A stretch of DNA of 64,000 bases, from positions 1 through 64,000 of the IMG/VR virus record IMGVR_UViG_3300009034_000015. One strand, written 5' to 3'. Made by a program: the position numbers and the translations under genes. The notes beneath the pieces were generated by a model. It saw only the letters and a program-made list of their open reading frames with translations, was not told the DNA's origin and did not search any database. Shown here one piece after another: positions 1 through 55,556 of this stretch. Position 1 is the first letter of the stretch, and every line of letters starts with the position of its first letter. This DNA comes from a virus.

Positions 1-206
1 ATTTTGTATTAAAAAATTCTCTGTTGCCATTTTAATTTTTAAAAAATCAGTAACTATATTGCAAACCTTAGTTTCTTGAACTAATTTAGCTTTCTTATTT
101 AATATACAAGTTTTACAAAGTCTTAAATCATATTGACTAATATTAGCTAATATAGGTATAGAACATTTATTTCTAATTCTTTCTGCTGTTTCTAATTTCA
201 TTCAAC

Positions 207-365
207 CTAATCATCGATTAAAGATAATAAAATTTGCACTCCAATAATTAAAAATGCAGCTAACCAAATATCTGTTTTTAAACTTTTAAAATCTATAATA
301 ATATAAAGAATACTTAACGACCCACAAGTTACTAAAATAAGCCAAGATATAATTCTTAATCTCAT
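207..365 (-). CDS. Small membrane protein (52 aa, not in ORF track)
   Basis: Hand-translated ORF MRLRIISWLIFSNLWVV... with two hydrophobic segments; ATG overlaps the upstream TAA. Confidence 0.5.
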   Translation of the reverse strand: MRLRIISWLILVTCGSLSILYIIIDFKSLKTDIWLAAFLIIGVQILLSLIDD

Positions 366-850
366 TATTTTATCTCATGAGGAAACGGTTTCTGCAATCT
401 AAAATATAGTAAGCCGTTATCAGTCTCTTTTAAAGTTTCTATTTTCCATGGCAAATATCCATATTCTTTTCCATATTTATTATAATGGGATTCATTTAAT
501 TGAAAATAAGTAAAAGTTTCTTTGTTAAAAAATCTTTTTGTTTCTGGATCTTGAAAAGCAGTTTGACATCTTGCATTAGGAACATAACCTTGGAATATCC
601 CATTAGGTTCTAATACCCTATGCACTTCATTCATTAAAAAAGTTAAGTTCTTAATCTGTTCTAATAAACCTTCACAAGTTACAAGTTTAATTGTTCCATC
701 AAAATAAGGAAATTCATCAATCCCAAGATTTAAAATTAAATCTGCTGGCTGTTTTATATCTATATTTATAAAACCAGGTAAATGCTTCTTGCCACAGCCA
801 AGATTTAACTTTTCAGAAAATTCAGGGAACTCACTCATTATAACCTCCAA
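365..850 (-). CDS. SAM-dependent methyltransferase (Methyltransf_11-like)
   Basis: KLNLGCG motif I, INIDI, and MNEVHRVLEPNG motif. Confidence 0.85.
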   Translation of the reverse strand: MEVIMSEFPEFSEKLNLGCGKKHLPGFINIDIKQPADLILNLGIDEFPYFDGTIKLVTCEGLLEQIKNLTFLMNEVHRVLEPNGIFQGYVPNARCQTAFQDPETKRFFNKETFTYFQLNESHYNKYGKEYGYLPWKIETLKETDNGLLYFRLQKPFPHEIK

Positions 851-18428: not shown

Positions 18429-18457
18429 ATTATATAAAAAGAAAATTAAAAATTAAT
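18429..18457 (-). promoter_or_regulatory. Promoter ATTAAT-N17-TATAAT
   Basis: Exact motif and spacing. Confidence 0.7.
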
Positions 18458-18513
18458 TAATCCCTCAAAAAATAGCCTTAGCATTTAACTAAGGCTAAAT
18501 TTTCAAAGATTAA
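18457..18513 (-). repeat. Conserved intergenic hairpin, copy 1
   Basis: TTAATCCCTCAA...TTCAAAGATTAA with variable inner stem. Confidence 0.9.
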
Positions 18514-18514
18514 T

Positions 18515-20329
18515 TTAAATTAATCTAAACTGCCTTATTAAAGCAAGCAAATCTCTTAATAACTGGTCTTGCTTATCAATACTAATCTTTAGCACCGGAA
18601 ACTTAAACCAGTCAACAAAAGTATTTAGTTCAATCCTATTAGTTTGTTTATACCAAATATTATTACTATAAGCATCATCATAAGCATCTTCAGGCACAGC
18701 AAAAATAACTTGACAACGATTTCTACTTGCTTTAATAATTAAGTCCTTAAAAGACTTATTGGCATTAATAGCACAGTTCTCACCAAGATCAGTAAAGACA
18801 ATCATAATAGATTTTAAATAGCCCTCTACCTTTAATTGATTTAAAAGAAAATGAGTAGAATATAAAATTGGAGTAATACCGATATGAGGTATTTCATCCC
18901 CTCTTATTATATCTACTGAACAGCGTGAACCAATAACATGCTTACCAGTAGTAAACCACACTTGGTCAAAATCAATTAAGCCCTTAAAGGTCTCAGAAAG
19001 GATAGCATAAATTCTTTTTTCTAAATCAAAATAACTAGTCATAGAACCAGAAATATCTCCAGAAAAAATAACTTTAGCTCCCTTTTCTAATTGAGGCAAT
19101 TTAAAAACCCTTACAGAAAATTCGTGCTTAGATTTAATATACTGTTGAATATCTATTAAATTTCCAGTAATATCTAAGTTAGTTTTTAATTTCTGTCTTA
19201 AAACAAGGGCTTTTCTAAGTTTCTTTGCCAGTTCCTTATCTTCAACACTTTCGCATTTAGGAACAGTTTTTTTACCTTTTTCAGTAATAGAAACTTCTTT
19301 TTTATTTAAACCTTGTTTAAGATCAGATTCAACTTTTTCCTTAGCAGAAAATTTCTGCATTAAATCCTTAGCACCTTGAACCAATGATGATAGTTCAGCT
19401 ACCTCATCCTGCTCTTCAAAGTCCATTCCATCTGTTATGCTTTCCTCTAAGTCAGTTTGCATTAGGTTAGAAAAAGAATCCTCATTATCATAAGAATCAA
19501 ACTCTTTGCTTTCATTCTCAGAATCTGAATCTTCCTTTTCTTTAGGCTGCTCAGTAGCATCCTGTTCTTGCTCTTTTTCTTTATGCTGATCAGAATTATT
19601 TTGTCCTTGCTCATCCTCTTGATCTTCAGAACCTGAACCTTCTTGCTGACTATTATCATAAGGCTCATCTAAATCCTCATCAACATCCTGGCTTTGCTCA
19701 TCCTTACTTTCTTGGCTTTCTCCTTGTTGTTTATTTTGGTTTTCTTCTTCTTGCTGCCTTTTTTGTTTAGCTTCATTTATTTCCTCATTATAGAGTTTAT
19801 AAACTTGCTCACCAAGTTCTACCACTCTTTTATTTGAAATAAACTTACTTTCAAACTCAGTTCTTATTTCTCCTAACTTTTCATTTAGTTTAGGAAAAGA
19901 ACTTTGACCAATAAAAGCATCAAGAACCCAGTCAGGATAAAAAGAAATAATAGGTTTATAATACCTATTTGTTTTTCTTTTTTTCCTTTTACCAATTAAA
20001 TCCAAATAAAACCAAGGAACAATTCGCCCTGCCATAGTATAACTTCTAAGGTCAAATAAACCATTAGTAATAGCTCGTTGATAATGCTCAACAATCTGAT
20101 TATTAATTATAGATTCTTTAACTTTATCTAAGCCAAAAGTTTTTGACCAATAATCAGCTTCTGCTATTAAATAGTTATGATAACCTGAAGCTTTATTACT
20201 AACAGGCTTGCTACCTAACCTTGCTCCTCTTAGAGCTAATGCTATCGCATTCCAGATTTCATTTGACTTATTAAGACTATCTGCCGTCCACCGATCTTTC
20301 TTCTTAGTCTTCTTCATAACTACCTCCAT
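18515..20329 (-). CDS. VWA (MIDAS) domain protein, CobT/NorD-like
   Basis: DISGSM MIDAS motif, ITP, VFTD; central acidic/Gln-rich linker; paired with a MoxR ATPase. Confidence 0.82.
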   Translation of the reverse strand: MEVVMKKTKKKDRWTADSLNKSNEIWNAIALALRGARLGSKPVSNKASGYHNYLIAEADYWSKTFGLDKVKESIINNQIVEHYQRAITNGLFDLRSYTMAGRIVPWFYLDLIGKRKKRKTNRYYKPIISFYPDWVLDAFIGQSSFPKLNEKLGEIRTEFESKFISNKRVVELGEQVYKLYNEEINEAKQKRQQEEENQNKQQGESQESKDEQSQDVDEDLDEPYDNSQQEGSGSEDQEDEQGQNNSDQHKEKEQEQDATEQPKEKEDSDSENESKEFDSYDNEDSFSNLMQTDLEESITDGMDFEEQDEVAELSSLVQGAKDLMQKFSAKEKVESDLKQGLNKKEVSITEKGKKTVPKCESVEDKELAKKLRKALVLRQKLKTNLDITGNLIDIQQYIKSKHEFSVRVFKLPQLEKGAKVIFSGDISGSMTSYFDLEKRIYAILSETFKGLIDFDQVWFTTGKHVIGSRCSVDIIRGDEIPHIGITPILYSTHFLLNQLKVEGYLKSIMIVFTDLGENCAINANKSFKDLIIKASRNRCQVIFAVPEDAYDDAYSNNIWYKQTNRIELNTFVDWFKFPVLKISIDKQDQLLRDLLALIRQFRLI

Positions 20330-20337
20330 TATAATAG

Positions 20338-20389
20338 TTAATCCCTCAAAGAATCCCTTTATTTCTAAAGGGAAACTTTCAAGAATTAA
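20338..20389 (-). repeat. Conserved intergenic hairpin, copy 2
   Basis: TTAATCCCTCAA...TTCAAGAATTAA. Confidence 0.9.
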
Positions 20390-20505
20390 GTTAGATTCTT
20401 CTTTATCTTTCTTTCTATGCCTTCCTTAATTATTGAATAAGCTAACCACATGCCTATTAATAATCCACTAAGAAAAGCAACTATATGAGATAAATAAAAA
20501 GCCAT
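20386..20505 (-). CDS. Small membrane protein (39 aa, not in ORF track)
   Basis: GGGAGG RBS; MAFYLSHIVAFLSGLLIGMW...; stop lies in the hairpin's terminal TTAA. Confidence 0.65.
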   Translation of the reverse strand: MAFYLSHIVAFLSGLLIGMWLAYSIIKEGIERKIKKNLT

Positions 20506-20532
20506 TAATACCTCCCTTTCTAAATATCAATT

Positions 20533-20700
20533 TTAATTGCTTTCATACCAATCAAGAAGAGTCTCTATCTCGGTTACAATTAAATTTAAATTAGCCAGTT
20601 CATCTTCTTGCCAATTTTCAATTTGACGATAACGCAAATTTTCAGGCTTGAGTTTTTGCATTGCCTTTCTTAATTTAGAAAATTGATTTTGATTTGCCAT
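20533..20700 (-). CDS. Hypothetical protein (55 aa, not in ORF track)
   Basis: GGGAGGT RBS; MANQNQFSKLEKAMQ... Confidence 0.65.
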   Translation of the reverse strand: MANQNQFSKLRKAMQKLKPENLRYRQIENWQEDELANLNLIVTEIETLLDWYESN

Positions 20701-20717
20701 CTAAATTACCTCCCTTT

Positions 20718-21518
20718 TTAAATATCAATACCAAAAGTTCCTCTTACTCTTTCAGCATAGGTTTGATAATCCTCATTCTCAAACTTACCAGCAGTTAATT
20801 TGAGAACCTCTTCGATAGTAAAACCATTTAAGGTTGCCTTACCCATTTCAACTAAATCCCTTGTTGATAGAGCATAACTAAAACCAGTAGTCCTTGTCTG
20901 AACTGCAAGGTTAACAAGGGCAGAAACTAAATTCTGATCCTCTAAACCAATTTTCTGGAGTATCTTAATCTCTTTTTTAGCAGAAGGATAGTCCATATTA
21001 ATAATCCAGAACCTTGATTTAAGGTCTTCATTTAGTTCAAATGCTCCACCATAAACACTTGGATTCTGAGTTCCTACTACTATCATCGGATCTTGGTATT
21101 CATAGCGCTTACCTATTTCCTTTACTGTGATTCCTTGTTTAAGGTCGAGTAAAGAGTTAAGCATCTTTTGACTACCTGGAGGTAAAGCATTTAATTCCTC
21201 TAAAAGAAGAATAAACTTTTCACCCCTATTCTGATACTTAATAGCAGTAGGTAAAATCCCAAGTGAGAAATAGCCTTCAGAACCATCAAGTCCATAATGA
21301 CCAATTAGCTGAGCATATCTAGTTTCCTCTGAGCATTCAGCAATTAATAGTTTATACTTATTCTTTCTTGCATAAGAATAAACCATTAGGGTTTTACCAA
21401 TTCCTTTTGGGCCATTTAAGATAACATGGCTTAACTTGGCAAAATCAAGTTTTTTGCCAACATAAGGAATTGAACCTCTTAATTTAGGTTTTACCAGTTT
21501 CTCATAAACCTTTTTCAT
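20718..21518 (-). CDS. MoxR/CbbQ/NorQ-type AAA+ ATPase
   Basis: GPKGIGKT, LLLEELN, TQNP..YGG..LNEDLKSRF, LSTRDL. Confidence 0.9.
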   Translation of the reverse strand: MKKVYEKLVKPKLRGSIPYVGKKLDFAKLSHVILNGPKGIGKTLMVYSYARKNKYKLLIAECSEETRYAQLIGHYGLDGSEGYFSLGILPTAIKYQNRGEKFILLLEELNALPPGSQKMLNSLLDLKQGITVKEIGKRYEYQDPMIVVGTQNPSVYGGAFELNEDLKSRFWIINMDYPSAKKEIKILQKIGLEDQNLVSALVNLAVQTRTTGFSYALSTRDLVEMGKATLNGFTIEEVLKLTAGKFENEDYQTYAERVRGTFGIDI

Positions 21519-21545
21519 AAATCACCTCCATATTAAAAAAGTTTT

Positions 21546-21598
21546 TTAATCCCTCAAGGAATACCTGGAATTAATCCAGGTAAACCCTCAAGGATTAA
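21546..21598 (-). repeat. Conserved intergenic hairpin, copy 3
   Basis: TTAATCCCTCAA...CTCAAGGATTAA. Confidence 0.9.
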
Positions 21599-21837
21599 TG
21601 CCCTAAAAGCTTATTAACCCTCTCAACCGTTCGGATAAGTTTCCGAATAGCCTTTCGATGCTGAGTAGATTTTACATACTTAGCACCCTTAATAGCAATC
21701 TTAGCAATAGCCAAGGACTCAGTAAGAGTTAAAGGCTTTTTAATTCCTTTAACTTTTCTTTCTGTCCTTTTTAACTGCTTTTTCTGCTTTTTTGGCCTTC
21801 CCGGTTTTCTTTTCTTTTCCTTTGCTTTCTTTTTCAT
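21595..21837 (-). CDS. Small basic protein with AT-hook-like motif
   Basis: RKPGRPKK; AAGGAG RBS; stop lies in the hairpin end. Confidence 0.65.
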   Translation of the reverse strand: MKKKAKEKKRKPGRPKKQKKQLKRTERKVKGIKKPLTLTESLAIAKIAIKGAKYVKSTQHRKAIRKLIRTVERVNKLLGH

Positions 21838-22066
21838 CTACACTCTCCTTTCTTTTAGCGAGTTTTTCTGCTAGCTCTCTTAAATGGTTCTTCTTCTTTT
21901 CATCTTGCTCTTTTTCCCTTTTAGCCTTAATCCATTTTAAAAGAGCTTCTTTAGACCAGATGACTAGCCTATTATCCTTTATTCTCTGGACAACAACTTC
22001 TTCTGAAGTTTGATAGACTATTTCAGCTGGTCCACTTCGAAAGTAAACTTTCCAGCCAATTACCAT
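21749..22066 (-). CDS. Hypothetical protein
   Basis: AGGAGGTG RBS; 3' end overlaps the next gene. Confidence 0.65.
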   Translation of the reverse strand: MVIGWKVYFRSGPAEIVYQTSEEVVVQRIKDNRLVIWSKEALLKWIKAKREKEQDEKKKNHLRELAEKLAKRKESVDEKESKGKEKKTGKAKKAEKAVKKDRKKS

Positions 22067-22393
22067 TTACACCTCCTTTCTTCCTTCTTTAAGGCCAATC
22101 GAAACTTCACTACCATCTACAGCAGTTCCACAGACCATTAAAGGTTTCTTTGGTTTAAGAATCTTTCCATTTTTCAGAACAAGATAACTAAATTTTGGGG
22201 ATCTCTTTTTCATTAATTCCTTACCCTTTGGAGTATTACCTATAATAACACACCTTAAAGAAGAATTAATTCTAAGAGATTCTAACTTTTCTTTTGCTTG
22301 CTTGATAGTTTCAGTATTAAAACAAAAGAACATTTTAGGATCATCCCCTTTAGGTATCTGCGTCTGAAACCTATCCTTTTTCTTAAAACCCAT
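22067..22393 (-). CDS. Hypothetical protein
   Basis: AGGAGGTG RBS, 108 aa. Confidence 0.7.
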   Translation of the reverse strand: MGFKKKDRFQTQIPKGDDPKMFFCFNTETIKQAKEKLESLRINSSLRCVIIGNTPKGKELMKKRSPKFSYLVLKNGKILKPKKPLMVCGTAVDGSEVSIGLKEGRKEV

Positions 22394-22735
22394 TTACACC
22401 TCCTTTCTTTTTCTACACTTCTTGCATCGTTTATAAAGATCACTAAAGGATTTTTTTAAATCAACTTTAGTATTCTTTTCGGTATTATCTAAATTTAATA
22501 AAATATCTCTACTATATTTTATATAAGCATTATGATTCAGATTACGCTTCTTCATTTCCTTAGCTAACAAATCATGACGATCCCAAATAGCTAAGGGTTC
22601 TACAAATTGCTGTAAGGCAAGTTTGCCTAATTTTCTTCCTTTTGCAATATGACCAGCAAGTTTATGCAATTCATAATGTTCACCTAATAAATGCTGATTA
22701 CATAATAAGGAAGGTTTTAGCATCCACATCCTCAT
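22394..22735 (-). CDS. denV: Pyrimidine-dimer DNA glycosylase / endonuclease V family
   Basis: MRMWM..P..LCNQHLLGEHYELH and RHDLLAKEMKKR..NH. Confidence 0.8.
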   Translation of the reverse strand: MRMWMLKPSLLCNQHLLGEHYELHKLAGHIAKGRKLGKLALQQFVEPLAIWDRHDLLAKEMKKRNLNHNAYIKYSRDILLNLDNTEKNTKVDLKKSFSDLYKRCKKCRKRKEV

Positions 22736-22764
22736 TAGTTACCTCTCTTTTTAAATTAATAAAT

Positions 22765-22815
22765 TTAACTCCTCAATAAAGCCCTTTAAAATAAAGGGCT
22801 AAGTTCAAAAGTTAA
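22765..22815 (-). repeat. Conserved intergenic hairpin, copy 4
   Basis: TTAACTCCTCAA...TTCAAAAGTTAA, with compensatory changes in the outer stem. Confidence 0.88.
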
Positions 22816-22818
22816 ATT

Positions 22819-23034
22819 TTATTCATGCTGCTCATCATCTTCTTTTTCTTCTAATTCTAATTCATGGCATTTACTAAAAGTTTCAATTTGAGCTTGAATA
22901 GAATAAAATAACTTTTCAACTTCTCTTATTGTTAAATTTACACCATGAATTGAACGCCCAATCATTCTTCCCTCAAATCCAGTAACTTTGCTAATCTCAA
23001 TGTTAAAAACCCCTCTTTCTTTTTCATCTATCAT
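22819..23034 (-). CDS. Hypothetical protein
   Basis: GGGAGG RBS; lies between two hairpins. Confidence 0.7.
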   Translation of the reverse strand: MIDEKERGVFNIEISKVTGFEGRMIGRSIHGVNLTIREVEKLFYSIQAQIETFSKCHELELEEKEDDEQHE

Positions 23035-23062
23035 CTTAACCTCCCTATTTAAAGTTAATAAA

Positions 23063-23115
23063 TTAATCCCTCAATAATCCCCTTAAATAAATTAAGGGGA
23101 AAGTTCAAGGATTAA
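23063..23115 (-). repeat. Conserved intergenic hairpin, copy 5
   Basis: 23048..23107 is identical to 24007..24066 (60 bp). Confidence 0.92.
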
Positions 23116-23285
23116 TAAGCTAAAAGATCTAATCTCTTTTTTATTTCCGCCTTTTCCTCTTTGCAAACTTCACGAAGATCACAATACTTACAAAATTTAT
23201 GCTTAATTTTCTTTGGATTTTTATTCCTTAAATGAGAAATTAAGCAACCAAAAGCATTTTCTTGTTTAGAAGTTCTTAAAGCCAT
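23112..23285 (-). CDS. Small Cys-containing protein (57 aa, not in ORF track)
   Basis: AGGAGGAG RBS; MALRTSKQ...C...CKYC.....C; stop in hairpin end. Confidence 0.7.
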   Translation of the reverse strand: MALRTSKQENAFGCLISHLRNKNPKKIKHKFCKYCDLREVCKEEKAEIKKRLDLLAY

Positions 23286-23313
23286 TTTACTCCTCCTTTT
23301 CTAAATTAATAAA

Positions 23314-23370
23314 TTAATACCTCAAGGAATTACCCTAATTAAAAATTAGGATAAAACCTTCAAACATTAA
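23314..23370 (-). repeat. Conserved intergenic hairpin, copy 6
   Basis: TTAATACCTCAA...TTCAAACATTAA. Confidence 0.85.
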
Positions 23371-23462
23371 TTCCTTTTAGCTACCTTAGCTAGAGTTAAT
23401 TCTAACTTATTAACTCTGCATTTTAAAAGCCAGATAGCTCTTTGAATTTTTATTAAAGTCAT
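23367..23462 (-). CDS. Micro-protein (31 aa)
   Basis: AAGGAG RBS; MTLIKIQRAIWLLKCRVNKLE...; stop in hairpin end. Confidence 0.55.
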   Translation of the reverse strand: MTLIKIQRAIWLLKCRVNKLELTLAKVAKRN

Positions 23463-23475
23463 AGCCAGTCTCCTT

Positions 23476-23574
23476 TTACTTCTTAATTAGCTTTATAGTT
23501 TCTAAGTTAAAAACTAAAGCAATCTTCTGAAGAGTTGACTTCCTTCGCCTTCTAACTTTAATAATCCTTTTCAT
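23476..23574 (-). CDS. Basic micro-protein (32 aa)
   Basis: GGGAGG RBS; MKRIIKVRRRRKST... Confidence 0.55.
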   Translation of the reverse strand: MKRIIKVRRRRKSTLQKIALVFNLETIKLIKK

Positions 23575-23595
23575 TTTAAACCTCCCTTCAATTAG

Positions 23596-23647
23596 TTAAT
23601 CCCTCAATAAAGCTCTCCAATTAAGGAGAGCTAAGTTCAAGGATTAA
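23596..23647 (-). repeat. Conserved intergenic hairpin, copy 7
   Basis: TTAATCCCTCAA...TTCAAGGATTAA. Confidence 0.92.
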
Positions 23648-23991
23648 ATCTTTTTCATCCTTTCTTGCAATGCTGCCAGTTGTTTTTCCCTAAATTCATT
23701 ATAAGCTTGCTCAGTTACAATTCGGGTTCCACCATGACCTTTATCAATAGTCGAGATCATAATTGGAAAAATAATATAAGGTTTTCTTTCTGCCTCGGCA
23801 TCTGGAGTTATTTCAACCTGGTCTGCAAATCCTTCAGTTTTAATAATCTTTGTTACTACGCCCCAATGCTCTGGATTTGCCATATCCCCTCGGTTATAAA
23901 CTCTAAGACCAATTTCAATCTCTTCTGTTTTCATCCCTGCTTTTCTACTTATCGCCTTGGATTCTTCAAAGCATATTTCTTTTAGCCTCAT
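23644..23991 (-). CDS. Hypothetical protein
   Basis: GGAGG RBS; stop in hairpin end. Confidence 0.75.
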   Translation of the reverse strand: MRLKEICFEESKAISRKAGMKTEEIEIGLRVYNRGDMANPEHWGVVTKIIKTEGFADQVEITPDAEAERKPYIIFPIMISTIDKGHGGTRIVTEQAYNEFREKQLAALQERMKKI

Positions 23992-24021
23992 TTTAAACCT
24001 CCATAGTTTAAAGTTAATAAA

Positions 24022-24074
24022 TTAATCCCTCAATAATCCCCTTAAATAAATTAAGGGGAAAGTTCAGAAATTAA
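24022..24074 (-). repeat. Conserved intergenic hairpin, copy 8
   Basis: TTAATCCCTCAA...TTCAGAAATTAA. Confidence 0.92.
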
Positions 24075-24244
24075 TAACAGCCACTTAAAGTTCTCATATT
24101 ATTATGATTAGCCTTAACTATTTTAGCATGCCTAATACAAAGATCTTCATAAATTTTATGATTTGGAAAGACTTTTACACTTCTCACATTTTTTCTTAGC
24201 TTACCACAAATATCACATTTTTTCATTTTTACTTTAGTCTTCAT
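24071..24244 (-). CDS. Small Zn-finger-like protein (57 aa, not in ORF track)
   Basis: AAGGAG RBS; CDIC...CIRH; stop in hairpin end. Confidence 0.7.
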   Translation of the reverse strand: MKTKVKMKKCDICGKLRKNVRSVKVFPNHKIYEDLCIRHAKIVKANHNNMRTLSGCY

Positions 24245-24267
24245 TTTATTCTCCTTTTAAATAGTTA

Positions 24268-24324
24268 TTAAAAACTCAGTTAAGCCCACTTTAAATAAAT
24301 AAAATGGACTTAATGAGGTTTTAA
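24268..24324 (-). repeat. Long hairpin of similar size but different type
   Basis: TTAA-bounded ~25-bp imperfect stem, G-U pairs on the minus strand, no G.G mismatch. Confidence 0.65.
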
Positions 24325-24350
24325 AAGAATAAACTCAGATTTACTCTTTT

Positions 24351-24714
24351 GGAGGTAATGGAGGTTATATTGTTCTTTACTTTAAATTATAGCCCACTTA
24401 TCTTTTTGGTTTCACTCTATCCACCCTCAAAGCTTTTATGGTAACTCCCGGTTAAAAACCTATGTTTACCACTAATAACTTCCCAGCTCCCGAATCCAAC
24501 CTCAGTTAATTCCTTGCTCTTTATTTCTTTTTAATTACCATCGCTAGAATAGCTAAGAAATAAAGCCAAGATAAGTTTCTTAAAATCTATTTTAAGAACC
24601 CTAGAGTGATTAAGCTTTTATAGCCCTTTAACTTACCGCCAGCTTTAATGTTGCCGAGGTAGCAATAACCTCAGAATTAAAGCTCTCCTTCAGGCTATAA
24701 TGATAACCTACTCC
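24351..24714 (-). ncRNA. Putative large structured RNA / 5' leader
   Basis: Seven mutually nested helices found by eye in a GC-enriched, gene-poor segment downstream of a promoter. Confidence 0.55.
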
Positions 24715-24796
24715 GTTATGTAAAAGAACTAATAGAAGTATTATAAAAAAGCTCTTAATTTCTTTTTTAATTTCCCTCATCATACTTTAATATATA

Positions 24797-24813
24797 AGCT
24801 AAAACTGTGCCAA
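24797..24813 (-). promoter_or_regulatory. sigma54 (RpoN)-type -24/-12 promoter
   Basis: TTGGCACAGTTTTAGCT: GG-N10-GC with a perfect TGGCAC; one mismatch in TTGC. Confidence 0.7.
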
Positions 24814-24910
24814 AATTAGGATAAATAGGCAAAAACTCGTTTTAAGGCTATTTTATAAGGGATAATAGGGTTTTACTATAAGTTATTTTTATAATATCTG
24901 ATTACAAAAA

Positions 24911-25011
24911 TAGGTAATATTTACCTAATTTAAGCCTAAATTGTCAGTAGTTCTATAAACCCTTTATTTCATTAGGTTTTTTATGATTTTAAATTAGGTA
25001 AAAATTACCTA
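24911..25011. promoter_or_regulatory. Pair of palindromic sites (AGGTAA-N3-TTACCT) forming a 23-bp inverted repeat
   Basis: 24911..24933 versus 24989..25011: one mismatch in 23 bp; each copy is itself palindromic. Confidence 0.65.
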
Positions 25012-25280
25012 TAAATTACAAAAAGTAATAGCCTTTTTCCTTAAAACACAGTTTATTAACTTTTAAGCCCCTTAAAATAATCAAAAATAATTAAAAAAAC
25101 TTTAATCTACCTTATCACAATTATATAATTATACTTAATTATATTATAATTATATTTAATTAAATATAATAAGCTCCATAGATAGCTTATAAGGGCTTTT
25201 AGGCTATTAAGCCTTAACTTAACCTTTAATTTTAAAACTTAGCTATATCCCTACCTATCCTGGTTAGTAATTAGATAATA

Positions 25281-25316
25281 AAAAAGCCCTAATATAAACT
25301 AATTATTAGGGCTTTT
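25281..25316 (-). terminator. Intrinsic terminator
   Basis: AAAAGCCCTAATA/TATTAGGGCTTTT stem with U tract at the end of the replication operon. Confidence 0.8.
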
Positions 25317-25338
25317 AAAAAGTAGGTTTAAGGTTTAT

Positions 25339-25944
25339 TTATTCTATTTTCTTTTTCCTTGCTGCTTTAACTAACTTTTGGATTATATCCTTATCTTTAC
25401 CTTTATAAACTGCTTCATAACTTTTAGGGTTTTTAATCTTCTTTACCCCTGGTAGTTTTATATAATGCCTAAACTTTATTTTACCATCTGGTTTAAGGCA
25501 AATAATATTCTTAGTTTCCTTTTTGTTTTTAAAAACTATATTATCATTTTCTTTTACTGTGTATTTTCTACCTTTCAATAATCTTTTTATAAAACTTAAA
25601 AAAGGAAACTTTTGTTCTAATTCTGCTTCTACTTTTAACTGCTCTTCGGTTAAATCTTGCAAACCCTTTTCTATCTCTTCAACAGTTTTGTCAGTTAGCT
25701 CTTTTTCCTCTGCGAATATAGCTCCACAATAAGGGCAATAATCTAAGTCTGGTATATCAAACTTGCAATTAGCACATCTAAAATAAAAAGAACCATATTT
25801 TTTAATAAGTTCTTTTTCTACTCTTTCAATACCATCTTCTAAGCCATGCCCTTTTAACTGGATTTTTATATAAGAAACTCCAGTTAATTTAGAAAGTCCT
25901 ACCTTTAACGATTCTACTGTAAGCTTGCCCCTATCTGGCTCCAT
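25339..25944 (-). CDS. Hypothetical Zn-ribbon protein
   Basis: CANC...CPYCG. Confidence 0.7.
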   Translation of the reverse strand: MEPDRGKLTVESLKVGLSKLTGVSYIKIQLKGHGLEDGIERVEKELIKKYGSFYFRCANCKFDIPDLDYCPYCGAIFAEEKELTDKTVEEIEKGLQDLTEEQLKVEAELEQKFPFLSFIKRLLKGRKYTVKENDNIVFKNKKETKNIICLKPDGKIKFRHYIKLPGVKKIKNPKSYEAVYKGKDKDIIQKLVKAARKKKIE

Positions 25945-52926: not shown

Positions 52927-53538
52927 GCTATCACCTCCTTTCTTTTTCTCGACTATTTTATAATCCAGTATTCGCCCTACTGGATGATCAAACTTATGAT
53001 TAAAAAATACCAAACCCTTTGGAGGTTTCTCCATATAAACTTTCATTGCTTCTTTAAAAGCAATTGGTTTAATAATTTCATTTAATAAATTTTTAGCATC
53101 AGTTGATACATAACCTTCAATTATTTTATTCTTTTTATCAATAACAGTAATTACAGCTTCTTTATCTGCCGGAATAGTTACTATTGAAATATCTCTAAGG
53201 TCAACCTTATCTACTATTATTTTATGTTTTTCACTAACCTTATCCCCGATATAAATTATATCTTCACCTTCAGTTGGCCTACCACTCCAGGAAAAAGCAG
53301 TAATATAGCCTTTAACTATCTTTTTCCAAATATCATTATCTTCAATTTTTACCTTTACCCAAAGCCCACCATTAAATTTAAGAACGCTATCTTTTCTTAC
53401 AAAATGCATCATAACCTTTCCGCCTTTACCATCATCACATTTAATAACTAAAAATTTCTTTTTATTAGCAGGTGAATCTACTAATGAAACTTCAAATGTA
53501 GTTAAATCAATTAATCTTCTAACTTTCTTTTTAGCCAT
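52153..53538 (-). CDS. Prohead protease (circularly permuted HK97-type) fused to scaffold
   Basis: GLWV..FSWSG..DISIVTIPAD precedes IEGYVST..NH..PVGRI; acidic/coiled-coil C-terminal half. Confidence 0.8.
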   Translation of the reverse strand: MAKKKVRRLIDLTTFEVSLVDSPANKKKFLVIKCDDGKGGKVMMHFVRKDSVLKFNGGLWVKVKIEDNDIWKKIVKGYITAFSWSGRPTEGEDIIYIGDKVSEKHKIIVDKVDLRDISIVTIPADKEAVITVIDKKNKIIEGYVSTDAKNLLNEIIKPIAFKEAMKVYMEKPPKGLVFFNHKFDHPVGRILDYKIVEKKKGGDSMDDKDIELTDEQKAQKNLDDSLPDNPEELDDFEVTVKSNDETTDDDTSDDQDAMDDSEKDKVDKEVVLKQESKIVKGINDCLSTLAGLLTEHKVPGYEDFKLPTKKSQKISVVEIAKLAPKNIPVLKKAMSLLMGIFTQYGYSPEKKLMLDVDTSKISKKLGEVETQLSGVIKSLDQALETANEQKIADLSKTIAEIKDTIENKIPIRKTTVNNEDRSTLEVDDKVEPTKKLLESEEYKNADPIAKVELLLGQEETE

Positions 53539-55138
53539 CTTCTACCTCCACTTCTTCTTCTTTAACTCTTGAAATTCCTTGAACTGAATAACCAGTTATT
53601 TCTCCAGATTTAATTGCTTTCCAAATTTCCTTATCCAATACCTTAGTAGTTATTAACCAAGAATTTTTTTTAATTTCATAACCATCTATTTTAAAATTAA
53701 CAGGAGCGATATAATTTTCTAATATTTTTAATGAAGAGGGAAACATCGAATGCATTAAACCTAATGTTGCAAAATCCTGCATAAATTTAAAACAAGTCTT
53801 TCTTATCTCTTCAGCAGATATAATTTCACCCTGACCATCAATAGTCTCAGGCTCAAGAACTACACCTGTCACTAACTGCTCATCTTCTTTAGCTTTATAA
53901 ATAGGAACAAATCTATTAAAATGTTCTTTAGTATCATCTGGTAATTGTTTTTTTACTTCCTCTGGTAAATCTTTATAACCAATAGCTTTTAAAGCTTTTA
54001 AGGTATCAGGATTCCAAATTATATTTATCTTTTCTTTTTTAGCTTTCTCTTTTTCTTTCTGCTGATCATGAGTAGTTATATATGGCTCTTGAGTTTTAAT
54101 AGGTTTATTTATTTTCCACCATTCATCAGGGACTTTTTCATAATCCTCTCCACTTATTAACGAAATATTATACCTACCATTTAAACCCTTATTCTTTTTA
54201 AAGAAGAGAAAATATTCGTGATAATCAGTTTTTTGAACCCCATAAATTGCTAATCCAGAATCTACATAATCAATTCTACCAGCAGTTTCTTCAGTAGCAC
54301 CAGCCTGACCAACCTCTGCAAAATAAGTAGGTTTTTTAGAGCTTACTAAATGCAACCATTTTAAATTATGTAAAGGTCTTTTTTGTGCAGATATATTACT
54401 TTCATCATCAAAGAATTTATTTTTTAAAATATCTTCAACCCTACCATCTTTTAAAAATTGAATAATAGCCCCTGGAGTATTTAAAGCCCAATCAATTAAT
54501 AACTTTTTATCAGATAATAATATTCTTAAATCTAAATGTGCATTACCTCTATTGATTAAAACATTCATTAAACCAGCTAATTCATTTTTCTTTGGAGGTT
54601 TTTTACTAATAAATTTACTTATTACTTCTGAAACTTTTCCACCAGTATCAGAAGCTTTTTGAGCACTTGCTTTTAATTTACCTAAATCATTTTTTAAAAT
54701 AGCTATTTTATAATTACTCCAAAGTTTTCTTAAAGCTTTATTAGCCTCATCATCAGGCAATCGTTTAATCTTTTTTAAATTAGTTTTAATATCATTAATA
54801 TCCTTTTCACTCCAAATCCCTCTACTGTGCTTTTGAATAACAAATTTATTAGTTTTAATTCCTTCTTGCTTAACCATATAAGGATTAGTATTTTTTTGTT
54901 TTATCTCTTCATCTTTAACTAAAAGCTCATTTTTAACATTATCTTTATTATCTTTTTCTATACTTTCAATTATATCTAATTTCTTTTTTTCTGCATCAAT
55001 CTTTTTAATAATAGGAAATAACCAACTATAAGGAGTTTCACCAGCCTCAATTTCACGCTTTTTTATTTCCTCTAAAACAAAAACATAAGCGTTAATTAAA
55101 TCTTCTTTATTAAATTTATTTAATTCTATATTAATCAT
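53531..55138 (-). CDS. Head protein: LigD 3'-phosphoesterase-like motifs plus XkdF-type protease domain
   Basis: FVIQKH..G...HLDLR...W motifs; C-terminal QLVTGVVLEP..D.QGE...MH...GEITGYSVQG; start taken at the ATG at 55138. Confidence 0.65.
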   Translation of the reverse strand: MINIELNKFNKEDLINAYVFVLEEIKKREIEAGETPYSWLFPIIKKIDAEKKKLDIIESIEKDNKDNVKNELLVKDEEIKQKNTNPYMVKQEGIKTNKFVIQKHSRGIWSEKDINDIKTNLKKIKRLPDDEANKALRKLWSNYKIAILKNDLGKLKASAQKASDTGGKVSEVISKFISKKPPKKNELAGLMNVLINRGNAHLDLRILLSDKKLLIDWALNTPGAIIQFLKDGRVEDILKNKFFDDESNISAQKRPLHNLKWLHLVSSKKPTYFAEVGQAGATEETAGRIDYVDSGLAIYGVQKTDYHEYFLFFKKNKGLNGRYNISLISGEDYEKVPDEWWKINKPIKTQEPYITTHDQQKEKEKAKKEKINIIWNPDTLKALKAIGYKDLPEEVKKQLPDDTKEHFNRFVPIYKAKEDEQLVTGVVLEPETIDGQGEIISAEEIRKTCFKFMQDFATLGLMHSMFPSSLKILENYIAPVNFKIDGYEIKKNSWLITTKVLDKEIWKAIKSGEITGYSVQGISRVKEEEVEVEDG

Positions 55139-55556
55139 TTTTAGATACCGCCTCAAATAACTCTTTATTCCATTCTTTATAATCTTCTGGCTTAAAAACA
55201 AATTCCCTTTTAATCATTTCTTTATAAATCTTTTTAGCTAATTTAACAACTTGTTCTTTAGTAAATTTAAACTCTTTCTTGTCTTCCTTTATAGTAAAAT
55301 ACCAATCATTAATAATTTTCCAATCATCTACTAATTGCTCATCTATAATTTCTTTAGGTTCATATTCATCTATATCTTTTATTTTAATTTCAATTTCTCC
55401 TATTTCTGGTTTATTTAAAGCCCCACCTGCATTAGAAATTCCTAAAGCTTTCTGAACAGATTTATCATAAATTTCATGTAATAATCCATGAAGCTCTAAT
55501 AAATCTTTATCAGAAATAGTTTTTAAATAATCTGAATTTATTTCATTTAGTTTCAT
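55131..55556 (-). CDS. Hypothetical head-module protein
   Basis: MKLNEINSDYL... helical ORF coupled to its neighbours. Confidence 0.6.
   Translation of the reverse strand: MKLNEINSDYLKTISDKDLLELHGLLHEIYDKSVQKALGISNAGGALNKPEIGEIEIKIKDIDEYEPKEIIDEQLVDDWKIINDWYFTIKEDKKEFKFTKEQVVKLAKKIYKEMIKREFVFKPEDYKEWNKELFEAVSKND

Follow-up and report, generated by a model that had tools for sequence, protein, structure and literature searches.

The stretch of DNA considered here, referred to as the window, comprises the first 64 kb of an 81,630-nucleotide (nt) IMG/VR virus record (IMGVR_UViG_3300009034_000015), which is linear, about 57% complete and derived from an uncultured phage. The genome has a guanine-plus-cytosine (GC) content of 28.5%, and its minus strand carries essentially all genes. 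The longest gap in the window free of open reading frames (ORFs), at 24245-25338, lies between a gene of 201 amino acids (aa; 25944-25339, minus strand) and a gene of 57 aa (24244-24071, minus strand), and it contains a block at 24351-24714 that the initial annotation proposed as a candidate novel structured RNA of about 360 nt. This apparently empty kilobase has the look of an ordinary control region, assembled from a terminator, enhancer-like palindromes, a sigma-54 promoter, a long leader and a terminator-like hairpin. Tentatively, the block is interpreted as the core, richer in GC than the rest, of an untranslated leader of about 540 nt that is specific to this lineage. The leader would head a sigma-54-dependent, hairpin-punctuated operon of small genes, and any action it has would probably be in cis; a new RNA machine is the less likely description. 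The coordinates of the leader features run along the minus strand, and the elements of the locus are as follows:

24910-25012, no strand assigned: a pair of TAGGTAA-N3-TTACCTA palindromes (24910-24927, 24994-25011) with a spacing of 84 bp
24797-24813, minus strand: sigma-54-type -24/-12 promoter TTGGCACAGTTTTAGCT, the sole exact TGGCAY-N5-TWGC in the 81.6-kb record
24628-24783, minus strand: 51-aa ORF (MMREIKKEIKSFFIILLLVLL...) from the ORF listing, starting 3 nt after the predicted transcription start and lacking a Shine-Dalgarno sequence
24719-24729, minus strand: boxA-like 11-mer GTTCTTTTACA, no more than a weak lead, some 60 nt downstream of the predicted start
24351-24714, minus strand: the flagged block, 36% GC, with no usable ORF, two GC-richer lobes, and a helix P2 that encloses P3 and P4, the latter enclosing P5, P6 and P7
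24268-24324, minus strand: long AU-rich hairpin followed by CUGAGUUUUU, -23.4 kcal/mol, which resembles a terminator or else opens the series of intercistronic hairpins in the operon
24071-24255, minus strand: first operon gene led by a Shine-Dalgarno sequence (AAAGGAG, 24255-24249), encoding a small CxxC-type protein of 57 aa (24244-24071)
18457-24074, minus strand: eight intergenic hairpins of about 55 nt each, with a common base UUAAUCCUUGA...UUGAGGGAUUAA and variable apical stems

The promoter element at 24812-24798, TGGCACAGTTTTAGC, differs by one base from TGGCAC-N5-TTGC and carries the GG at -24 and the GC at -12 by which sigma-54 promoters are recognized. Together with its surroundings it reads TTGGCACAGTTTTAGCTTATATA in this phage, where the box is followed by GCTTATAT. 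With the usual sigma-54 spacing, in which transcription starts 12 nt from the GC element, the start would fall near 24786. The leader predicted from this position is about 540 nt long (about 24786 to 24245, minus strand) and ends with the hairpin, AAAGGAG and the ATG at 24244; the block begins 72 nt into it, a distance that is also given for the box itself. The two palindromes, for which a repeat search returned 24-nt arms that are 96% complementary, lie about 110-225 bp upstream of the promoter, and the local fold at 24900-25049 has a z-score of -3.8. Their placement with respect to the sigma-54 box makes them candidates for enhancers or operators. No Sigma54_activat domain (PF00158) was detected in the incomplete record (81.6 kb, 57% complete), and a search of the literature on sigma-54 early promoters in phages returned nothing directly relevant.

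Relatives of the operon were gathered through the family of a downstream 115-aa gene, which yielded one viral locus (L002) and 67 metagenome loci. A sigma-54-type box heads the homologous operon in four phages of the group, and the extension TWGCTTATAT is common to three of them. The boxes in the three relatives are located as follows:

L009, 1348-1369: TGGCACAGTGATTGCTTATATA, ahead of the operon with the homologous 115-aa gene, with GCTTATAT
L066, 832-855: TGGCATGGGTATTGCTTATATG (longer stretch TTGGCATGGGTATTGCTTATATG), upstream of the homologous 115-aa-gene operon, with GCTTATAT
L030, 1009-1024: consensus box TGGCACGGGGATTGCA, upstream of the homologous 115-aa-gene operon

In L009, whose marker gene is 57% identical at the amino-acid level, a 36-nt match to positions 24815-24780 spans the box, and this is the sole similarity that BLASTN and nhmmer recovered when a counterpart of the block was sought in the 67 metagenome loci; tblastx recovered none. 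The predicted leaders of these relatives measure about 290 nt in L009, about 55 nt in L066 and about 25 nt in L030, and their sequences are unrelated to the leader that contains the block; the L009 leader is ORF-free and purine-rich, with a fold z-score of -1.1. The P4 domain (198 nt) was also made into a covariance model, and a search with it against 70 loci and the window matched only the domain itself. The closest relative by the 115-aa protein, L002/L006 (83% amino-acid identity), has an unrelated and differently organized upstream region. Since the leaders vary in length, are unrelated in sequence and contain no match to the P4 model, the long fold is not a conserved part of this architecture. 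The promoter thus appears to be the conserved element in this little-known phage group, as judged from these loci, and the long folded leader does not.

Wider searches gave the same picture of a fold that seems lineage-specific. The 1.1-kb gap has no BLASTN match among 50,697 phage records, and within the 81.6-kb record the block matches only itself, as a single copy. A 19-mer from the block had no match in viral contigs. The promoter combined with GCTTATATA was found, among viral contigs, only in the record of L009, while the 120 loci that the same pattern retrieved from GTDB genomes carry generic sigma-54 promoters with no similarity in the leader. Searches for related viral contigs through the upstream 201-aa gene and its 604-aa neighbor found none, and a search through the capsid found three short contigs.

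At its downstream end the leader runs into the hairpin at 24324-24268, which the initial annotation had described and which proved to be real, with a U-run. Its core (24313-24280) comprises 14 pairs, only three of them G-C, followed by CUGAGUUUUU, and it has the stem-loop and U-run of a putative intrinsic terminator; the U-run is able to pair with an upstream A-run. It is the only terminator-like site in 23900-25500. Further along, the eight intergenic hairpins have perfect apical stems of 8-11 bp and energies of -22 to -34 kcal/mol, and their local fold z-scores, down to -7, are the strongest in the region. With no U-run after any of them, they suggest sites of processing or protein binding more than terminators. 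The locus L066 has its own repeated GC-rich hairpin, GGCCCGGCGTAACCGGGAA, at 868-890 in the short leader after the sigma-54 box and again at 1588-1610 between two genes, so the layout of a hairpin after every cistron recurs there with another hairpin sequence. The proposal of a cis-acting leader at the head of the operon is accordingly plausible in its setting, with a sigma-54-type promoter upstream and a terminator-like hairpin downstream; the part of the proposal that likened it to put or EAR antiterminators is without direct evidence.

The boxA-like 11-mer is the only antitermination-like signal that was detected, and it lies outside the proposed fold. The gamma-proteobacterial boxA consensus is GYTCTTTAANA (PMC5725501). 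GTTCTTTTACA agrees with it at 10 of 11 positions, with the mismatch at position 8, and this consensus, being gamma-proteobacterial, may not be that of the host. In the L009 leader, GGTCTTTGAAAAC stands at 1393-1405 of that locus, some 20 nt downstream of the predicted start. The pattern G[TGC]TCTTT[GTA]A[AC]A, which was written after both motifs had been seen, matches nothing else in the 197 kb that the family loci comprise. We take GGTCTTTGAAAAC to resemble the Gram-positive rrn boxA. Antitermination of the boxA type, as a means of passing the leader hairpin and the eight intercistronic hairpins, is a reasonable but unproven suggestion. Two further stretches on the plus strand, TTGCTCTTTATTTC (24514-24527) and GCTCTTAATTTC (24749-24760), are like the boxA sequences of Escherichia coli and lambda; both are antisense to the operon, and the likeness is probably a coincidence.

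Turning to the block itself, most of the helices drawn in the initial annotation exist as drawn. P2 (24701-24693/24394-24386, 9 bp) and P3 (24684-24676/24649-24641, 9 bp), the latter with its inner CUGAGGU/ACCUCGG hairpin, are perfectly Watson-Crick paired, as are P4 (8 bp), P5 (9-10 bp), P6 (11 bp) and P7 (6 bp), and the nested architecture is recovered in both the minimum free energy (MFE) and the centroid structures of RNAfold. The second perfect 8-bp partner that had been noted for the 5' strand of P2 is present at 24625-24618. The outermost helix did not hold up: P1 is weak, consisting of 4 bp and 6 bp with large asymmetric loops, and its pair probability drops to 0.08-0.19 once flanking sequence is included. 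The segment is also gene-poor, as stated, with no ORF longer than 51 aa in any frame.

Several observations weigh against regarding this block as the core of an ordinary leader. The pair probabilities of P2-P7, between 0.65 and 0.96, are stable over three sequence contexts in RNAfold. The GC enrichment that had been reported is real, at 36.0% in the block against 22% in the flanking leader parts on both sides and in the upstream spacer (ORFs in this genome average 28.8 +/- 5.3%); a functionless spacer at 28.5% genomic GC would be expected to drift to AT, so the GC content has been maintained or recently introduced by something. Perfect stems of at least 9 bp number five, against 0.57 in shuffled sequences, none of which reached five in 200 trials, and the same count occurs in 2.3% of genome windows, which places the block in the top 2.3%. 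Three of the five exact copies of GGCTATAA in the 64 kb fall within the block, two of them direct and one inverted. As for the boxA-like motif, GTTCTTTNACA occurs only once in the window, with at least one match in 20% of shuffles, and the consensus with one mismatch allowed is found 35 times against 28.5 expected, which is no enrichment. Within the block, the GC is concentrated in two lobes, 24600-24720 and 24400-24540, and the AT-rich trough between them holds the AU-rich hairpins P5 and P6. This island of 36% GC between flanks of 22% is the unexplained point of the locus, and it keeps alive both a structured RNA and a relic gene as explanations.

A structured RNA in the sense of the initial annotation would be a genuine, lineage-specific molecule of about 360-500 nt. 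It could be an independent non-coding RNA that starts at the sigma-54 promoter and stops at the hairpin at 24324-24268. Alternatively, the fold could regulate in cis, with the two partners of the P2 5' strand forming a switch, perhaps coupled to translation of the overlapping 51-aa ORF. The promoter-to-terminator layout suits it, a GC island is the usual signature of structured RNAs in AT-rich genomes, and the nested high-probability helices, the excess of long perfect stems, the paired alternatives for P2, the clustered GGCTATAA copies and the lack of any credible protein homologue all point in the same direction. The stability of the fold does not. The MFE of the 364-nt block is -90.9 kcal/mol, for a z-score of -1.79, with seven of 100 dinucleotide shuffles equally stable, and the plus strand of the same block scores -1.75; because the two strands are alike, a strand-specific G-U signal is absent. 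When the block was compared with 175 other 364-nt windows on the same strand, with MFE regressed on base composition, its residual z-score was -1.03, and 12% of the windows, mostly coding, were equally or more stable. The fold proposed by the initial annotation is therefore close to being no better than its controls. Sliding windows of 150 nt within the block range from +0.6 to -1.3, against a regional mean of -0.98. The outliers of the region, at -3 to -7, coincide with the palindromes at 24910-25012, with the hairpin at 24324-24268 and with those between cistrons. The whole leader, for its part, reaches -3.6 only because the hairpin at 24324-24268 is included.

The count of stems of at least 8 bp is matched in 14% of genome windows, the phage genome being rich in inverted repeats, and the long helices of the block, all perfect and mostly AU-rich, are like the generic hairpins of this phage. 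Several are mutually exclusive: for example, 24576-24568/24404-24396 competes with P4, and 24672-24665/24368-24361 competes with both the inner hairpin of P3 and P1. Neither their thermodynamics nor the comparative evidence separates the block from the genome background. Relatives with the same promoter lack the fold, and no relative exists in Rfam, where the whole window has no match at gathering thresholds (4227 models, Rfam 15) and the region 24000-25500, at E <= 10, has only chance-level matches of 17-23 bits, far under the gathering scores. With stability near background, an empty Rfam result and no counterpart in relatives, a discrete, selected RNA of this size is unlikely.

Among other known elements, the initial annotation had seen no hallmark of tmRNA, RNase P or a group II intron, and this stands. 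ARAGORN found no tRNA or tmRNA, and tmRNA, RNase P and introns are excluded by the absence of any Rfam or ARAGORN signal. A retron is excluded as there is no reverse transcriptase nearby, an RNA array of a type III toxin-antitoxin system as there are no tandem repeats, a replication origin as the cumulative GC skew has no turning point here, and an alternative genetic code as every frame contains several kinds of stop. On the plus strand, opposite all genes, the segment 24349-24444 holds a hydrophobic ORF of 31 aa (MEVMEVILFFTLNYSPLIFLVSLYPPSKLLW) with two GGAGG motifs in tandem ahead of it; on the RNA strand the same bases form two CCUCC motifs, resembling anti-Shine-Dalgarno sequences, at the 3' end of the proposed fold.

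Coding sequence, present or former, offers another account of the GC island. The block would then be either a broken gene of about 120 codons with a 51-aa N-terminal remnant, or a real leaderless membrane protein of 51 aa followed by a 3' spacer, and its GC content and G>C skew would be inherited from coding sequence, with the stems incidental. In GC content (36%) and in the minus-strand skew of G over C, the block is like the genes of this phage and unlike its spacers. The lobes coincide with coding-like periodicity, which is frame-specific in the 51-aa ORF (24780-24613, in the frame of this ORF) and which in a second stretch, 24540-24421 in another frame, reaches a gene-like +0.21 bits per codon with a single TAA in 66 codons. 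The predicted transcription start stands 3 nt ahead of the ATG, and in the relatives an ordinary small gene directly follows the promoter. Yet there are about ten stops per frame across the block, and the periodic Markov score of the 51-aa ORF, -0.175 bits per codon, is lower than that of nearly all plausible small genes, while being higher than that of 95% of spurious overlapping ORFs; by our estimate, an ORF of this length is about what chance would produce in 1.1 kb at this composition. For comparison, the 57-aa gene scores +0.265 bits per codon.

Homology lends the coding account no help. The exact 51-aa sequence is absent from a collection of 15 billion proteins, and a word search, PHROGs and tblastx against the relatives found no homologue; in L009 there is no ATG at the position, so the ORF is not conserved there. 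PHROGs likewise held nothing for the second piece. A phmmer search of the 66-codon read-through against 1.84 billion proteins gave three matches, to adhesins with TQ domains or other repeat proteins, which were rejected as spurious because their scores were inflated by repeats (about 25 bits per repeat). The 51-aa ORF may encode a small membrane peptide translated without a leader, or it may be a relic or have arisen by chance. A hypothetical decayed small gene would account for the gene-like GC and skew of both lobes; taken as a whole, a coding origin of the block seems as doubtful as the structured RNA.

The 51-aa ORF also overlaps the fold, spanning the 5' strands of P1 and P2 and the whole of P3, and its stop lies 3 nt before the alternative partner of P2. 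A more elaborate regulatory device can be drawn from this overlap. It would be an RNA of about 450-520 nt, confined to this lineage, that runs from the sigma-54 promoter to the terminator; the choice between P2 and its alternative would respond to translation of the leaderless 51-codon ORF and thereby set whether polymerase passes 24324-24268. This device is a long shot.

A further reading is a signal at the level of DNA, with the RNA helices as by-products. The block would then hold a cluster of protein-binding or promoter-like sites (GGCTATAAT, with a perfect -10 hexamer in both orientations), or, as a variant, would be a small inserted element with imperfect terminal inverted repeats (GGAG..GGTTAT..TTATAGCC). 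Equal fold z-scores on the two strands and long stems that are all perfectly Watson-Crick are what DNA inverted repeats would give. GGCTATAA, which includes a perfect TATAAT, is clustered in the block, GGCTAT recurs in the upstream spacer, a sigma-70-like GTGAAA-18-TATAAT is present at 24415-24386, and the GC boundaries are sharp. Against these points, the clustering of the k-mer is lost after correction for the number of k-mers tested, the element has one copy in the 81.6-kb record and none in any fetched locus, target-site duplications and a transposase are absent, and the cumulative GC skew does not turn at the block. The DNA-level explanation is accordingly improbable. Another repeat of the region, AAAAGCCCT, has three copies in the gap out of four in the whole window.

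The surroundings of the leader complete the picture of a control region. Directly 3' of the 201-aa gene, a hairpin AAAAAGCCCTAATA...TATTAGGGCTTTTAAAAAG occupies positions 25281-25320 of the window, and its sequence and position suggest a two-way terminator, which would keep the upstream unit separate from the sigma-54 control region. A relative of the 201-aa protein, 66% identical, is encoded on a contig of 1,862 nt. The exact 57-aa protein is recorded on two contigs, the second of which carries both the 115-aa and the 57-aa proteins in identical form. In L066 a 144-aa gene (149-583, minus strand) is divergent from the sigma-54 promoter, and its protein ends in ...RTAKALKITKRQLRYKIEKY, a C-terminus that may be a Fis-type helix-turn-helix of the kind with which enhancer-binding proteins end. 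For inference of the host, the open frame 53531-55201, whose matched part leads to head proteases, and DnaE gave only distant matches, in phages of unrelated hosts; the nearest proteins of cultured phages are less than 42% identical and likewise come from unrelated hosts.

Long untranslated leaders of early operons are known from phiEco32-like coliphages and from phage T7, where boxA and the RNase III site R0.3 are found. In the region described here, as in those leaders, several hundred protein-free nucleotides separate a host-type promoter from the first early gene, strong hairpins stand between the cistrons, and a possible boxA-like signal lies near the 5' end. It differs from them in that the promoter is of the sigma-54 rather than the sigma-70 type and is single rather than part of a tandem array, the boxA-like motif is mismatched and not significant, and the leader is not conserved in the relatives found. 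The likeness to rrn-type leaders, which act through boxA and NusB-NusE, lies in the position of GTTCTTTTACA, about 60 nt after the predicted start and before terminator-like hairpins, with GGTCTTTGAAAAC of L009 in a similar place; the mismatch at position 8, the lack of an identified boxB or boxC and the position of the motif outside the proposed fold set it apart.

The put RNA of HK022 has two stem-loops in about 70 nt, and the EAR element of Bacillus measures about 120 nt. Both occupy a comparable position in the nascent transcript, between a promoter and terminator-like structures, whereas the multibranch fold of 360 nt considered here resembles neither. EAR, GOLLD, ROOL, HEARO, tmRNA, RNase P, group I and II introns and riboswitches are all Rfam families, and no Rfam family matches the block beyond chance level even at E <= 10. 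With GOLLD, ROOL and HEARO the block has in common that it is a large, GC-enriched, ORF-free segment of phage DNA; those RNAs are defined by extensive covariation, whereas the block has no Rfam match, no exceptional stability and no conservation.

The course of events that the favored leader suggests would be as follows. A host enhancer-binding activator at the two upstream palindromes may open the sigma-54 promoter at 24813-24797, after which RNA polymerase would transcribe a leader that collapses into the local hairpins P3, P5, P6 and P7, with a small number of long-range pairings around them. The polymerase would meet the terminator-like hairpin at 24324-24268 immediately ahead of the first ribosome-binding site, and expression of the operon would require passage of this hairpin and of the eight further strong intercistronic hairpins. 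The most likely task of the leader would be performed in cis, namely to load or permit a termination-resistant polymerase, possibly by way of the boxA-like GTTCTTTTACA at 24729-24719, and it may also provide a stabilizing or processing hairpin at the 5' end. The fold of 360 nt could itself be an accidental property of a spacer derived in part from decayed coding sequence.

For AT-rich phage DNA in general, the locus counsels caution with structured-RNA calls made from nested complementary blocks alone, given that 2-14% of arbitrary windows hold as many long perfect stems. The translation-sensing RNA, if true, would be an attenuator or riboregulator of a new kind, coupled to translation and placed in front of a phage operon that depends on sigma-54. 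If the fold were real, it would represent a large phage RNA whose class is absent from Rfam and which is unusual in being driven by sigma-54, and it might explain how polymerase passes the series of hairpins in this operon.

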